64,000 bases of DNA from Gammaproteobacteria bacterium (GTDB lineage Bacteria; Pseudomonadota; Gammaproteobacteria; SURF-13): the NCBI GenBank assembly GCA_016195665.1, contig JACPZD010000024.1:23997-87996 (forward strand), written 5' to 3'. This document shows, piece by piece, positions 8,658-56,552 of the stretch; position 1 is the stretch's first letter; each line of letters begins with the position of its first letter. A program made the translations under genes and the position numbers. The notes beneath the pieces were generated by a model. That model saw only the letters and a program-made list of their open reading frames with translations. It was not told where the DNA came from and ran no database searches.

Positions 8658-8726
8658 TTTACCGCAGAGGGCGCGGAGCTGAACCAAGTCTTTTTGAACT
8701 TATCTCTCCGCGCCCTCCGCGGTGAA
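8658..8726. repeat. hairpin repeat family B (TTCACCGCAGAGGGCGCGGAGGAG ... CTCCGCG.CCTC.GCGGTGAA), copy 1
   Basis: About 22-bp inverted arms around a 25-30-nt loop; four copies in the window (also 30788..30860, 42089..42158, 56494..56552). Confidence 0.7.
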
Positions 8727-8727
8727 T

Positions 8728-10356
8728 ATGGTTTTATCCGAAATGGACTCTAGGGCCCGCGACATGAACAGCCTCACTCGCTCCAACATAGGGCTTTACA
8801 CCCTGTTCGCCGCCTGTGTGCTGGCCGGTTTTTTTCTCAATATCCATGCGGTGCCGCTGTTCGATCTGGATGAGGGCGCCTTCAGCGAGGCCACCCGCGA
8901 GATGTTCGTGCGCGGCGATTTTATTTCCCCCTACCTGAATGGTGAGCCGCGTTACGACAAACCGGTGCTGATCCACTGGCTGCAGGCCGCGAGCGTCTGG
9001 AGCTTGGGGCTTAATGAATTGGCGTTGCGGTTACCCTCGGCCTTGGCGGCCGCGTTGTGGAGCTGGCTGATCTTTCTTTTCACAAAGCGGTACACGACCA
9101 CCGCCACGGCCTTGTATGCCGCCATCATCACGGCCAGCAGCTTGCAGGTCTCGCTCATCGCCAAGGCCGCCATCGCGGACGCCCTATTGAATCTGTTTCT
9201 CAGCGGTGCACTGTTTAGTATTTATCTTTTCTATCAGTCACGCGAACTGAGATATGTCTATCTCAGCGCCGCAGCCATGGCCCTGGGCTTTCTCACCAAG
9301 GGGCCGGTTGCGGTGGTCATACCACTCGCCGTGAGTCTGTTGTTTTTTTTGAGCAAGGGTGAATTCAGGACTTGGCTCATGGCGCTGTTTAATCTTCGTG
9401 CGATGGCGCTGTTCGGCCTGCTGGCCCTGCCCTGGTACGTCGCGCAGTACCTCAGAGAGGGCGACGCCTTTATCCAGGGGTTTTTTTTCAAGCATAATAT
9501 CGCCCGCTTTGGGGAAACCTTTGAGCAGCATGGCGGCGGGGTTTTTTATTATATCCCGGTCGTCCTCATCGGTCTGTTGCCTTATACCGCACTGCTGTTC
9601 AAAACCTTCACCCGTCTCGGCGAAATCGTCAACGATGATCTAAAACGTTACCTTCTGATATGGTTTTTATTCGTCCTGATATTTTTTTCGTTTTCCGGCA
9701 CCAAGCTGCCTCACTATGCGGTGTACGGCTATCCCGCCGCCATCATCTTGATGGCCATGTACCTGGACACATTGCGCTCCGGATTCATGATCCTTCTGCC
9801 GCCGCTGCTCTTGTTTACCGCCTTGCTGTTTCTCCCCGAACTGATTCATGCCTGGCTCGCGGCGGTGCAGGATGTGTTTATTCGAGACACATTGCGCGAT
9901 GCGGGCGATTACTTTTCATTCCCCTACAGATTATTTTTTTCGCTGGCCATTTTACTCACTGTGTACTTTATGTTTGAAAACCGGTTTAGCAATCCGGGAA
10001 AATTGTTGTGCAGCGGGCTCGTTACCGTGACGGGGGTGGCGCTGTTTGTGCTGCCGATAGCGGGGCAGATTTTGCAATCGCCCATCAAGGAGGCGGCGCT
10101 CATCGCCAAGCGGGCCGATTATGCGGTGGTCATGTGGGGACTGAACGCGCCGAGCTTTAATGTTTACAGCGAACGGCTGGTGGAGCGGCGCGAACCGCGC
10201 CCCGGCGAGATCGCACTGACCAAGTCGAGCTATCTGCCGCGCCTCAAGGGCTACGAGACGCTTTATTACAAAAACGGGATTGCGCTCATCCGTGTGAAGT
10301 CACGAATAGACGTATCAAGCCCGGCAGGGCCAGCATCAAACAGCTCAGCGCAATGA
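8728..10356 (+). CDS. ArnT-like (GT83) undecaprenyl-phosphate-sugar:lipid A glycosyltransferase
   Basis: N-terminal FDLDEGAFSEATREMFVRGDFISP matches the ArnT signature (DE.RYAEI.REM). About 12 TM segments. First ATG at 8728 lies inside the family B hairpin; alternative starts at 8743 or 8764. Confidence 0.8.
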   Translation: MVLSEMDSRARDMNSLTRSNIGLYTLFAACVLAGFFLNIHAVPLFDLDEGAFSEATREMFVRGDFISPYLNGEPRYDKPVLIHWLQAASVWSLGLNELALRLPSALAAALWSWLIFLFTKRYTTTATALYAAIITASSLQVSLIAKAAIADALLNLFLSGALFSIYLFYQSRELRYVYLSAAAMALGFLTKGPVAVVIPLAVSLLFFLSKGEFRTWLMALFNLRAMALFGLLALPWYVAQYLREGDAFIQGFFFKHNIARFGETFEQHGGGVFYYIPVVLIGLLPYTALLFKTFTRLGEIVNDDLKRYLLIWFLFVLIFFSFSGTKLPHYAVYGYPAAIILMAMYLDTLRSGFMILLPPLLLFTALLFLPELIHAWLAAVQDVFIRDTLRDAGDYFSFPYRLFFSLAILLTVYFMFENRFSNPGKLLCSGLVTVTGVALFVLPIAGQILQSPIKEAALIAKRADYAVVMWGLNAPSFNVYSERLVERREPRPGEIALTKSSYLPRLKGYETLYYKNGIALIRVKSRIDVSSPAGPASNSSAQ

Positions 10357-11062
10357 CGCGCTGCAATACTTGTGTATCCGCATAACTGGTCACCGGCCAC
10401 AGCAGCAGATACAGCGCCGCCAAGGCGAGCACCGCTGCGATCAGGCGCTGCGTGGCGATCTCCATGCCCCGCGGCCAGCGGCGCGCAAGCTCTATCGCCC
10501 ACACCGCGCTCATCCAGCCGAGCAGCGCCCCGCCCAGTACGTCGAGCGGCCAATGCACGCCCACCATGATGCGCGATAGCCCGACGGCGGCGGCGATGAG
10601 CAACAGGCCCGCCCCTAGCCATCCATTCTTAAAACCGAGTGCGACCACCCCCGCCCAGGCGAAGATAGTAGCCGTGTGGCCGGAGGGAAAGGCCGTGGCC
10701 TTGAGGGCGGGGCCGATGAGATGAAAGCTCTCGGGTGACAACACGGCCGGCGGACGTGCAACGCCGAACGCGAGTTTGAGGCCGACCACCAGCACGGTAC
10801 TGAGTAGACCGGCAATCATGGCTGCCCAGAGGATGTCCGGGCGCCGGCCCGCCAGCGGCAGCAGTAAGATCATGGCAATCCAGCCGTCACCCAGCATCGT
10901 CATGGCCGCCCACACAACATCGTCGGCGAACAGGCCCTGTTTATTAATCCACAGAAACAAGGTGCGATTGCTGCCGGTGATAACTATGGCCGCCATCGCG
11001 AGAACACCGGCGAGCGGCACCAGCCAGCGCCACGGGTTAGCAGGCCAAGCTGATGGACTCAT
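10286..11062 (-). CDS. PAP2-family phosphatase (canonical motifs)
   Basis: 258 aa; KLAFGVARPP, PSGHTA, SRIMVGVHWPLD are the three PAP2 motifs; 71-nt convergent overlap with the ArnT-like gene. Confidence 0.8.
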   Translation of the reverse strand: MSPSAWPANPWRWLVPLAGVLAMAAIVITGSNRTLFLWINKQGLFADDVVWAAMTMLGDGWIAMILLLPLAGRRPDILWAAMIAGLLSTVLVVGLKLAFGVARPPAVLSPESFHLIGPALKATAFPSGHTATIFAWAGVVALGFKNGWLGAGLLLIAAAVGLSRIMVGVHWPLDVLGGALLGWMSAVWAIELARRWPRGMEIATQRLIAAVLALAALYLLLWPVTSYADTQVLQRVIALSCLMLALPGLIRLFVTSHG

Positions 11063-11746
11063 GCCGGCTTTTCGTCCGCAAACACCAGACGTACTTGAGT
11101 CCCCTTGCCGCGGCTGCTGCGCAGATGGATGCGCCAGTTGTAGCGGTCGCAGATGCGCTTGACCAGGGGCAAGCCCATGCCTGCGCCGCCCGGGACGCCG
11201 GCGGTATTGCCGCCGCGAAAGTGGGGCTCGAATACATGCGGCAAGTCGGCGGAGGTAATCCCTACGCCCGTGTCTTCAATACTTATGCTGTCGGCGTCCA
11301 ATTGCACGTTCACCGCGCCGCACCCGCCGGGTGAGCGGATCGTACACCAGATCGGCCACCTGGATGATCGCCGAACCGGGAGTTGCCCCGCGCCGCGTCA
11401 GGGCCTGCAGGCGCGCCTCGATTTCCTGCAACGCAAAGGGTTTGACCACATAGTCATCCGCCCCGCTGTTAAATCCGGCGAGCTTTTCCGGCAAGGTGTC
11501 GCGGGCCGTCAGCATCAGCACCGGCGTATTCTTGCGTGCTTCTTGACGCAATTTTTGGCACAGGTCTACGCCGTCCATCCCCGGCAACATGAGATCGAGT
11601 ACAATGGCGTCGTAGTCGTTCACCACCGCCAGGTGCAGGCCGGTGATGCCATCTTCCGCTACGCTGACCATGTGCCCTTTGTCGCTGAAGAAATCCTGCA
11701 GGATGGACGTGATGCCCATATCGTCTTCTATAATCAGGATGCGCAT
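11059..11746 (-). pseudogene. deletion-fused remnant of a PmrA/BasR-type response regulator and PmrB/BasS-type histidine kinase
   Basis: 11276..11746 encodes an intact receiver domain and the first 20 residues or so of the OmpR winged helix (IQVADLVYDPLTRRVRRGERAI) then stops. 11059..11313, in another frame, encodes only the HATPase_c tail (VNVQLDADSISIEDTGVGI...GGAGMGLPLVKRI), closely PmrB-like. Junction around 11290..11313. Confidence 0.7.
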
Positions 11747-11761
11747 AGCCCCCCATCACCT

Positions 11762-55610: not shown

Positions 55611-55850
55611 AAATGACGGATTTTGCTTCAAGACAAGGCGCAGCGCAGTCGAGCAGCGGTCGCTCCTGCGCGTCCTGCGCGTCCTGCGCCCGCGACATTG
55701 GTACGTCCCTGTACGGCACAGCATACACGCCAGTATGTGAGCAGCGCAGACAAGCTGCAACGGTCGCTCCTGCGCGTCCTGCGCCCGCGACATTCGTACT
55801 TCCTTGTACAGCACAGTATTGGAGCAAAAGACGCATTTTTAGAGGCGCCC
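55599..55850. mobile_element. MITE-like element copy 2 (about 252 bp) with an internal tandem duplication of a unit of about 95 bp
   Basis: Terminal inverted repeats GGGCGCCATCTAAAAAT / ATTTTTAGAGGCGCCC. The unit CGGTCGCTCCTGCGCGTCCTGCGCCCGCGACATT.GTAC.TCC.TGTAC.GCACAG occurs twice. Fills the whole ruvC-ruvA spacer. Confidence 0.65.
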
Positions 55851-55854
55851 TGAA

Positions 55855-56463
55855 ATGATAGGCCGCTTGCACGGAACCCTGCTTGCCAAGCGCGTGCCGG
55901 TGCTGTTGCTCGATGTGCAGGGTGTAGGCTACGAACTCGAGGCGCCGATGACGACCTTTTATGAGTTGCCGGCGGTGGGCGCGGCGGTGACCCTGCATAC
56001 CCACCTCGTGGTGCGCGACGACGCGCACCTGCTCTACGGCTTTGCGACGGAGGCGGAGCGCAGCCTGTTCCGCAGTCTGCTCAAGGTGAGCGGCGTCGGC
56101 GCCAAGCTCGCACTCACCATTTTGTCCGGGATCTCCGTTGATGGTTTCGTGCGCTGCGTGCAGAATAACGACAGCGCGAGCCTCACCCGCCTGCCCGGCA
56201 TCGGCAAAAAAACCGCCGAGCGCCTGGTGCTGGAGATGCGCGATCGTCTGGCCGACTGGCATGCGCCGCCGGTCATTACCCTGGAGGGTAAGACCACCGT
56301 TGCCGGCGGTACGTCTGCGCCGGTCGCCGACGCCATCAGCGCACTGGTGGCGCTGGGTTATAAACCTCAAGAGGCGAGCCGCATGGTGCATGCGCTGGAG
56401 GTTGCGGATCTTGGCAGCGAACAAATTATCCGCCGGGTCTTGCAGTCGGTGGTGAAGACCTAG
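55855..56463 (+). CDS. ruvA: Holliday junction branch migration complex subunit RuvA
   Basis: [27 protein letters not shown]...; HhH motifs ([14 protein letters not shown]). Confidence 0.9.
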
Positions 56464-56493
56464 CCTGGCGCATGCTCAGACCGATATAAAACC

Positions 56494-56552
56494 TTCACTG
56501 CGGAGGACGCGGAGGAGAAATAAAACCTAATTCTCCGCGTCCTCTGCGGTGT
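56494..56552. repeat. hairpin repeat family B, copy 4
   Basis: TTCACTGCGGAGGACGCGGAGGAGAAA...TTCTCCGCGTCCTCTGCGGTG. Confidence 0.7.

Follow-up and report, generated by a model that had tools for sequence, protein, structure and literature searches.

Hairpin repeats, very probably miniature mobile elements of several kinds, at gene boundaries of a gammaproteobacterial genome

A 64,000-nt stretch of DNA from an uncultured gammaproteobacterium (contig JACPZD010000024.1, positions 23,997 to 87,996; called the window below) very probably carries a dense, active population of several kinds of miniature non-coding mobile elements. Its hairpin-forming repeats number at least 24 and fall into at least nine families, and, as judged from the gene map, about two in three spacers of more than ~40 nt contain one. 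Many are insertions relative to relatives, several of them at the junction of two genes, where the ends of the element supply a stop codon; in addition, gspH receives a new start and leader from one repeat in the window and from the loop of a different hairpin in relatives. Mobile DNA is the primary and better-supported reading of these repeats, and any effects at the RNA level would be secondary.

The relatives' contigs, reached by homolog searches with RuvA, GspG and GcvT, derive from metagenomes, of soil among others, and those that carry a label are metagenome-assembled genomes (MAGs) of Gammaproteobacteria or Pseudomonadota; the close relatives of the window organism are metagenome assemblies only. 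Their proteins are 84-98% identical to those of the window, and the closest have ~95% nucleotide identity. All families were recovered by the repeat finder. The original prediction, made from the letters of the window, had named six families (A to F) and a composite element, some 17 elements in 64 kb, with the range given as 8658-56552. The families and the composite are real: motif A has three window matches (≤3 mismatches) and motif B four (8658, 30791, 42090 and 56494, each with its complementary arm), with no match to either in 100 shuffles, and the hairpins are strong, with folding energies of -40 to -66 kcal/mol and stems of 18-29 bp for B, C and D. The tally was too low, and the range holds most copies but not D1 (4473-4596) or C3 (63347-63420). 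Element E is a repeated structured element as described, although both copies measure 154 rather than 155 nt, and the supposed fragments of F belong to a distinct 51-nt family that is intragenic, clustered and nested in F2. Absent from the earlier list were a hairpin at 43434-43502, multi-hairpin inserts at 56464-56694, 60333-60497 and 62400-62550, and a 138-nt carrier of the B3 hairpin. At Rfam gathering thresholds the window matches only tRNA-Phe, a tandem glycine riboswitch and an sX9-like RNA, and no repeat family; it encodes no transposase, whether of an insertion sequence (IS) or of the kind associated with repetitive extragenic palindromic (REP) sequences (REP-associated tyrosine transposase, RAYT), and no GxxExxY gene.

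Empty orthologous sites exist for F2, F3, E1, E2, A3, the B3 carrier and the inserts in tolB and cpoB. Five of these elements have the ends of transposable DNA:

26516..26669, minus strand: E1, 154 nt, terminal repeats TGTTGAAAAA/TTTTTCAACA, GATT duplication; orthologous site empty in contigs L259 and L260.
36288..36441, minus strand: E2, 154 nt, directly 3' of the gspN stop, CTAA duplication; site empty in L252.
42043..42180, minus strand: B3 carrier, 138 nt, inverted-repeat ends, in the gspG leader; site empty in L249 and L252.
54151..54293, plus strand: F3, 143 nt, terminal repeat GGGCGCCNTCTAAAAAT, 3' end of an Abhydrolase_6 gene; site empty in L121 and L125.
55598..55850, plus strand: F2, 253 nt, F terminal repeats and two nested 51-nt-type units, at the overlap of the ruvC stop and the ruvA start, TGAA duplication.

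E, F and the B3 carrier are miniature inverted-repeat transposable elements (MITEs), with terminal inverted repeats and 3-4-bp target duplications. The terminal inverted repeat of F is GGGCGCCNTCTAAAAATG; the repeats of the B3 carrier extend over 23 bp with mismatches in the hairpin scan and over ~17 bp by reading of the ends. Set against the empty sites, the duplications are TGAA for F2, TACC/GACC for F3, CTAA/TTAA for the F copy of L121, GATT for E1, CTAA for E2 and TAA or YTAA for the B3 carrier, and the F MITE found at ruvC|ruvA in the window occupies ruvA|ruvB in L121. These elements resemble known bacterial MITEs, e.g., Correia/NEMIS of Neisseria, ERIC/IRU, RUP and Nezha, in size (138-253 nt), in being non-coding, in terminal repeats of 10-23 bp and duplications of 3-4 bp, in insertion polymorphism among close relatives and in insertion at gene junctions that affects expression signals. 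F differs in its nested copies of another mini-element, and E in its two hairpins with AUGGAU-type loops, which are not a described cargo. A parent IS or transposase with matching ends was found neither in the window nor in ~88 kb of relatives.

The two E hairpins form on the minus strand, which is the transcribed strand at both sites, and their AUGGAU and AUGGAG loops resemble CsrA/RsmA-binding sites as given by the SELEX (in vitro selection) consensus. This strand aligns end to end with RsmW and TD-2 and shares loop motifs with the Csr/Rsm-type small RNAs (sRNAs) of Rfam, with all scores below threshold: RsmW 41.3 bits (threshold 52), TD-2 37.6 and 33.3 (48.7) and TwoAYGGAY 28.7 (43), the 41.3 and 37.6 belonging to E2. 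Its duplications and empty sites mark E as a MITE rather than a conserved sRNA gene, and the possible binding of CsrA/RsmA by E RNA is a lead only.

That such elements remodel coding ends, as had been proposed, is borne out by before-and-after alignments with the orthologous loci of relatives, which also involve the following elements:

22819..22906, no strand assigned: C1, GTGAGG-type heptamers and their complement, upstream of a glycine riboswitch; present in L259 and L260 with another unit number.
41521..41609, no strand assigned: C2, 29-bp stem of GTGAGGM heptamers, gspH start region.
56464..56694, plus strand: B4 composite, made of B4 and hairpins 56554-56613 and 56641-56662, in place of ruvB codons 1-31 (231 nt).
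60333..60497, plus strand: tolB insert, 165-nt multi-hairpin (net +156 nt), in frame and stop-free in the signal-peptide region; absent in L121.
62400..62550, plus strand: cpoB/ybgF insert, ~150-nt multi-hairpin, in frame and stop-free in the signal-peptide region, with an internal ATG; absent in L121.

At the F2 site, L121-L123 and L125 read CTGAAATGATC uninterrupted, and the ruvC stop of relatives overlaps the ruvA start (...AGACTGAAATGATC); the window has F2 there, between two copies of TGAA. Through F2, RuvC gains GAI*, its TAA lying inside the F2 inverted repeat GGGCGCCATCTAAAAATG, and the AGAGG of the other F2 end stands 10 nt before the ruvA ATG. The hydrolase likewise takes its stop from the inverted repeat of F3, which changes its C-terminus from ...HTGQFSRPRR* to ...HTGRL*. 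Both stops had been placed in F beforehand, just as fbpB and gspH had been linked to C: the fbpB stop TAA (22889-22891) is inside C1, and the gspH start and leader are within C2. The only possible gspH start codons, GTG 41594, 41582 and 41561, all lie inside C2, which encodes the leader; in relatives a B-type hairpin occupies the C2 site, its loop holding the gspH ATG and its right arm encoding the leader. For the ArnT-like gene, whose start had been assigned to B1, there are two candidate starts: the in-frame GTG 8722 is within the right arm of B1, and ATG 8728 begins at the first base past it.

The junction of ruvA and ruvB is an insertion hot spot in the lineage. It is empty in L125, where the two genes overlap (ATGA) and ruvB begins MIETDRLIVPAE..., and it holds an F MITE in L121 (5053-5257), the B4 composite in the window and a PhdYeFM/PIN toxin-antitoxin pair in L126 (10680-11342) and L127. 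In the window, alignment to ruvB begins at 56695 and the match to the RuvB_N profile at position 16, and in-frame starts are limited to GTG 56712 and ATG 56724. A remnant just 3' of ruvA, ATGCTCAGACCGAT, resembles the ancestral ATGATCGAAACCGAC; either the window's ruvB is truncated or the assembly was misjoined at the repeats. In gspG, the leader of L249 and L252, MNMKIDAKQSHSG|F, is interrupted in the window, in frame and stop-free, by the B3 carrier. The insert holds, at 42051-42062 on the minus strand, a good Shine-Dalgarno AGGGGAG followed by an ATG; since this ATG lies in another frame than gspG and yields MDTL*, gspG seems dependent on the upstream ATG 42200 and a 59-aa leader. TolB counted from its ATG has 487 aa in the window and 435 aa in L121, and CpoB has 328 and 278 aa, respectively.

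Inserts within genes are also the mark of the 51-nt element:

13693..13743, plus strand: variant copy GACGCACATGG...GGGAGCGAC, at a codon boundary inside a DUF255/thioredoxin-domain gene.
21928..21996, minus strand: copy with an 18-nt internal expansion, in frame inside gcvT, encoding 23 aa.
25740..26000, no strand assigned: cluster of units in both orientations in the spacer between cytochrome c and solute-binding protein (SBP) genes; fewer units in relatives.

Its consensus, from 15 aligned copies, is GACGTACAGGGAAGTACTAATGTCGCGGGAGGCAGGAYGCCGGGAGCGACC; it makes no target duplication, and the preceding base is usually T. In the three copies whose boundaries were worked out, i.e., both relatives' GcvT sites and the window's DUF255 site (13693 - 11827 = 1866 nt, or 622 whole codons), it lies exactly between codons. 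The GcvT insert is present in the window (with the additional 18 nt) and in P0241 and P0243 (17 aa in these two), absent in P0242, P0244, P0245, P0248 and P0249, and at another GcvT position in P0246. In relatives, copies are also found inside uvrD, gspL and an SBP gene, with correspondingly longer proteins; L259 alone has 8 copies in 18.8 kb, in both orientations, three of them in uvrD. Copies in L260 (2901; upstream of gcvT) lie in the signal-peptide region of an iron-binding SBP and between the glycine riboswitch and the gcvT start.

Insertion in frame is itself a known phenomenon: palindromic inserts of this sort, i.e., Rickettsia palindromic elements (RPE; Ogata et al.) and intragenic REPs, occur in frame within open genes, including those for UvrD/REP helicase and other repair proteins (PMC3733652), as the 51-nt element does in uvrD of L259. 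It differs from them in a length of exactly 17 codons, insertion at codon boundaries, the lack of a duplication and a CGTC that is not an unpaired tag; it works like an RPE and is not filed as a member. Membership in the CGTC-tagged REPs was considered and rejected. These are defined by an unpaired CGTC tag, an 8-9-bp stem and a 4-5-nt loop (PMC3733652 Table 1), whereas the reverse strand of the 51-nt element ends ...CTGTACGTC, with the CGTC overlapping a GTAC/GTAC stem, so that the tag is paired, not free, and the stems are of 4-5 bp.

Family A belongs to the GTAG-type REPs, which RAYT (Y1) transposases mobilise. Its three window copies lie within 3.2 kb:

11762..11783, plus strand: A1, GTAGGGCCGGATTCATTCGGCC, between divergent response-regulator and DUF255 genes; also at the orthologous site of L259.
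13956..13980, plus strand: A2, between convergent DUF255 and PfkB genes.
14935..14956, plus strand: A3, in the 43-nt DAGK-PfkB spacer.

GTAG followed by a GGCCGAA/TTCGGCC stem with a TTCA loop is common to all three and to 190 foreign copies, and across the latter the conserved part is GTAG plus the stem-loop only. A3 is missing at the orthologous site of L259, the window being 25 nt longer there, and the A2 orthologue of L259 has a compensatory stem change (GCC/GGC to GTC/GAC). At least 120 metagenome contigs with GC contents of 45-71% contain the exact A 22-mer, none homologous to the window among the matches listed, and foreign relatives of A include sister forms with compensatory stems, inverted doublets and tandem arrays. 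One such contig, L164, has a Y1_Tnp open reading frame (ORF; Pfam 49.7 bits, cut-off 23) with two A copies on one side and five inverted copies on the other, which is the canonical REP-RAYT layout. With the published REP/BIME/REPIN-RAYT systems of Escherichia, Pseudomonas and Stenotrophomonas ('SMAG'; Di Nocera et al. 2013, PMC3733652), where 24 GTAG REP families have been described, A shares the GTAG head, 7-bp stem and short loop, compensatory sub-families, doublets or arrays, a flanked Y1_Tnp gene (L164), rarity between divergent genes and, apparently, many interspersed copies. In contrast to these systems, the window has single A units only and no RAYT gene, and the spread of the 22-mer over contigs of such different GC content is broader than that of the published REP classes, which are mostly lineage-specific. 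Another contig with an A REP, L192, carries at 11103-12009 a Y1_Tnp (RAYT-like) gene with 30-34-bp flanking inverted repeats unrelated to A, which resembles the tyrosine transposases associated with terminal inverted repeats in PMC3733652.

Family B consists of long-stemmed hairpins:

8657..8727, no strand assigned: B1, 22-bp stem and 27-nt loop, divergent spacer between LPG-synthase-like and ArnT-like genes.
30791..30858, no strand assigned: B2, between convergent SDR and HD-domain genes.
42090-42159, minus strand: B3, hairpin within the 138-nt insertion 42043..42180 in the gspG leader.
56494..56553, no strand assigned: B4, 23-bp stem.

Their loops of 14-27 nt contain no ORF; an A-run and a T-run at the flanks lengthen the stem, the T-runs lying 3-8 nt past it. 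The 18-nt arm motif ACCGCRGAGGRCGCRGAG was searched in contigs of one genome per species (596 Gb) and found at no fewer than 120 loci; as ~140 chance matches to an 18-mer are expected there, single-arm loci prove nothing, and only those with a complementary arm within 260 nt were counted. The 120 matches listed include 57 such true hairpins, whose hosts represent about 12 bacterial phyla in all (Acidobacteriota, Chloroflexota, Planctomycetota, Verrucomicrobiota, Gemmatimonadota, Bacteroidota, Desulfobacterota, Lentisphaerota, Spirochaetota and several classes of Pseudomonadota among them) and one ANME-2 archaeal MAG. Foreign arms are built of 2-4 tandem CGCRGAGGR units within an outer TTCACC...GGTGAA, and the loops, 10-250 nt long, are unrelated across genomes. 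Viral contigs hold 40 B hairpins in 27 loci, and no GxxExxY gene was found in them.

At eight loci among the 120 matches listed, the arms stand 400-600 nt apart around a GxxExxY gene (TIGR04256, E = 4e-43; PF13366). The window B arms (TTCACCGCRGAGGRCGC... and complement) match those flanking GxxExxY genes in L052, L041, L254 and others; as neither the space between the window arms nor the rest of the window contains such a gene, the window copies are gene-less derivatives at most. A search by protein alone gave GxxExxY genes on plasmids, located in tight spacers between housekeeping genes (downstream of radA, downstream of ade, and in the fabD-fabG interval). Arms of the B kind bracket four of the five, e.g., TTCACCACAGAGGACGCAGAGG...CCTCTGTGTCCTCTGTGGTGAA in Bacteroides, and the composition of the units follows the GC content of the genome. 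The palindromic layout places the GGAGG-rich arm invariably on the 5' side of the gene, a short distance of a few bases from the ATG, which suggests that this arm is the ribosome-binding site of the GxxExxY gene. PF13366 is catalogued as a family of unknown function with multiple inter-division transfers (PMC3424549); nothing linking GxxExxY to flanking repeats was found in the searchable literature, a literal search there for the B and D arm sequences had no match, and a sequence search of the PDB gave no relative of GxxExxY. The cassettes share with the 23S rRNA intervening sequences of Leptospira and Coxiella (PMC4990558) the plan of a long terminal-inverted-repeat stem around a small ORF, a selfish insert in conserved loci; they differ in cargo (the PD-(D/E)XK protein GxxExxY, not S23p) and in lying between protein genes, not in rRNA.

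Other candidate cassettes were discarded: a scan for ORFs within long inverted repeats of whatever sequence was overwhelmed by matches that arise by chance in GC-rich DNA, only B-type arms having a consistent cargo, and ORFs between other long-stem pairs proved to be ordinary genes between two separate hairpins. Two arrangements were seen in Chloroflexus islandicus: B-type units in a head-to-tail array of 32-nt period without a hairpin (L069, 5963-6076), and B-type arms (L021, arm pairs 4054-4804 and 4717-5239) around an ORF, not mapped to one arm pair, that encodes an MntA-like nucleotidyltransferase (antitoxin) by a match below the curated cut-off (34.3 vs 60 bits), with no GxxExxY.

The arms of the remaining families are built of tandem units:

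4473..4596, no strand assigned: D1, CGCCAAGR octamer arms (4502/4564) within an outer AACCGC...GCGGTT.
33194..33315, no strand assigned: D2, arms at 33210/33270, inverted relative to D1, between S8 peptidase and NUDIX genes.
43434..43502, no strand assigned: hairpin with AAGATAC heptamer arms, gspE-gspF spacer.
63347..63420, no strand assigned: C3, heptamer arms (63354) between cpoB/ybgF and a radical-SAM gene; orthologue in L121 with another unit count.

The D arms share an outer ACCGC with B, and exact matches to them occur in Phycisphaerales and Chloroflexia loci. The gspE-gspF spacers of three relatives have their flanks and the innermost GATACAAG unit in common, while the outer units differ on both arms together, e.g., AAGATAC in L252 and GGGAAAA in L249; hairpins with heptamer arms of many unrelated units also occur in foreign loci, some of them cyanobacterial. 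Cyanobacterial heptamer repeats termed STRR were reportedly described by Mazel and colleagues in 1990. Tandem heptamers are common to these, to C, to the 43434 hairpin and to many foreign hairpins; in C and at 43434, however, the tandem run is always followed by its own complement, forming a hairpin, and the host is proteobacterial. Directly downstream of C1, a tandem glycine riboswitch (22577-22768, minus strand; aptamers of 70.1 and 46.7 bits) precedes gcvT.

A composite element and several other irregularities complete the window:

48338..48436, no strand assigned: composite bounded by CATGAACC...GGTTCATG, with three internal GC-rich hairpins.

CATGAACC stands at 48339 and its inverse at 48429; the spacer is too diverged from L249 for insertion boundaries to be set. 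Further on, the spacer 3' of an HGSNAT-like gene holds an Rfam match to the Xanthomonas sRNA sX9 (49368-49441, plus strand; 48.3 bits, threshold 44). Positions 49000-52000 are low in GC (45-51% vs ~60%), and 51491-53351 has no blastn match in L121, which has HTH_Tnp_1 and RibD_C genes there; the low-GC stretch and the adjoining segment may be a variable or horizontally acquired region. A 214-nt direct repeat of 71% identity within the S8 subtilase gene (33421-33634 and 33772-33985) is a duplicated coding module outside the hairpin families, and the tolA repeat region (59567-59615, 59631-59802) has 76-nt direct repeats and differs by 48 nt in length from L121. The HD-domain ORF at 30864-31831 (minus strand) matches only the C-terminal half of the HD_5 profile, and its upstream part seems to be in another frame (ORF 31217-31831); the gene may be frameshifted or a pseudogene.

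The original prediction also suggested that the elements act as terminators and mRNA stabilisers, which is not supported as stated: there is no significant strand signal, and two copies lie in divergent spacers. By the Pfam gene map, 12 of the 16 listed window elements lie between co-directional genes, two between convergent (B2, A2) and two between divergent genes (B1, A1), family A contributing one of each; B1 and A1 stand between divergent genes, so there is no 3' end to terminate. A broader form of this explanation, in which the elements exist mainly as working RNA structures (intrinsic, often bidirectional terminators or 3' stabilisers) kept by selection at gene ends, is unlikely. It can draw on the placement of foreign copies, as A is found in 54 co-directional, 50 convergent and 6 divergent spacers against 281/69/70 for all spacers (p = 4e-4, 1e-12) and B in 29, 12 and 1 against 440/103/101 (p = 0.007, 0.03), these p-values being optimistic because copies within one spacer are not independent; yet depletion between divergent and enrichment between convergent genes fits a 3'-end role and the purging of promoter-disrupting insertions equally well. 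It can also point to the A- and T-runs that extend the B stems, as in bidirectional terminators, to the A2 stem kept through a compensatory double change, and to the published REPs, which are mostly downstream of ORFs and contain G·T pairs (PMC3733652). On the other hand, B3 is translated in the gspG leader, the tolB and cpoB inserts and 51-nt copies are inside coding sequence, and termination at B4 or F2 within the ruvCAB cluster would be polar. For B3, C1, C2, C3, D2 and the 43434 hairpin, the RNA strand with the better fold is not the transcribed one, and G·U pairs do not significantly outnumber A·C pairs on the transcribed strand of 31 foreign B hairpins (60 vs 46, p = 0.21). A consensus terminator scan, which takes loops of 3-8 nt, flags just sub-hairpins of B arms and is blind to long-loop hairpins, gave 29, 22 and 25 sites against 19, 18 and 19 in shuffles, close to the latter and none a whole element. 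Finally, presence and absence among near-identical relatives argue against an indispensable role.

Two further explanations concern particular families. B-type and perhaps D-type hairpins might be gene-less versions of a cassette that spreads horizontally, or else its landing sites. The cassette would consist of a purine-rich arm, a gene for the ~125-aa GxxExxY PD-(D/E)XK nuclease and the complementary arm; the hairpin or cruciform would be the substrate of the nuclease, and the GGAGG-rich 5' arm would be the ribosome-binding site of the cargo. The spread of the hairpins over many phyla, the arm-bracketed GxxExxY genes found by arm and, independently, by protein, the inter-division transfers of PF13366 and the relatives' B hairpin, which supplies GGAGGA and then the ATG of gspH, speak for this idea, which nonetheless falls somewhat short of an even chance: most B hairpins are empty, including the 40 in viral contigs, neither the window nor 88 kb of relatives has a GxxExxY gene, the loci were selected by the arm motif, with only the small plasmid sample free of such bias, and both the direction (derivative or target) and the nuclease activity are conjectural. 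A bolder version is more tentative still: B and D hairpins may be the miniature form of an undescribed, phylum-crossing selfish cassette with CGCRGAGGR arms, a portable Shine-Dalgarno sequence and a GxxExxY nuclease that would move or home it via the extruded hairpin or cruciform, leaving empty hairpins by the hundreds that hosts could co-opt for starts and leaders. For the C family and the 43434 hairpin, the competing idea is that they are local palindromes evolving in place by slippage and template-switch copying of arms rather than transposed units, which is possible, although the balance leans against it. Slippage and arm-to-arm copying would be sufficient for the changes in heptamer arms: the outer gspE-gspF units change on both arms with the flanks kept, C1 and C3 are orthologous in relatives with differing unit numbers, foreign hairpins have many unrelated units, and neither duplications nor terminal repeats apart from the arms are seen. 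However, three GTGAGGM copies at unrelated window sites, with the same unit in a Sulfuricellaceae MAG, require spread or convergence, and the B-type and C-type hairpins at gspG-gspH of relatives that are 97-98% identical look like a replacement.

The case for mobile DNA has its own weak points. With no transposase in the window, mobilisation is inferred; no orthologous empty site was found for B1, B2, D1, D2 or the 48338 composite; B, C and D show no target duplication; and gspE-gspF and gspG-gspH hold different hairpins in relatives, which may mean in-place evolution or replacement, not simple transposition. To these are added the non-independence of copies behind the placement statistics and the crude home-made caller used for genes of the foreign loci. 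The source is possibly metagenome-assembled, and repeats can cause misjoins, which the truncated ruvB may exemplify. That the repeats and odd gene ends as a whole are artefacts of metagenome assembly, i.e., chimeric joins at repeats, is nevertheless highly improbable: truncated ruvB and a possible frameshift in the HD-domain gene are typical misassembly products, and four exact window proteins that were looked up have no match in a public gene index, but the families recur, often at identical sites, in independent assemblies (ENA, JGI, NCBI, Logan), with clean duplications and preserved reading frames.

The mobile reading would accommodate the contacts with genes as follows. Copies would survive where they are harmless, as at the 3' ends of genes, in spacers inside operons and in N-terminal leaders that can be cleaved off, and would be purged from promoters, which would by itself produce the apparent 'systematic contact with gene termini' that had been put forward. 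Purine-rich arm or repeat sequences (GGAGG, AGAGG) could serve as ribosome-binding sites, tandem-repeat arms would evolve in place by slippage and the copying of one arm from the other, and copies that are transcribed may incidentally cause transcription to pause or end, or make the mRNA more stable.

The window families, i.e., REPs, MITEs and RPE-like inserts, are of known kinds, and the link of B-type hairpins to GxxExxY cassettes across phyla seems to be a genuinely new lead. By tying the widespread GxxExxY family (PF13366) to a specific conserved DNA hairpin, it makes the function of the family experimentally testable. What the lineage offers besides is a set of clean before-and-after views of gene-boundary rewriting between ~95% identical genomes, in which stops, ribosome-binding sites and starts are newly supplied and proteins, leaders and signal peptides grow by 17-55 residues. 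Annotation calls for corresponding caution, as starts and stops within such repeats, and 'long' N-termini, are element-derived.

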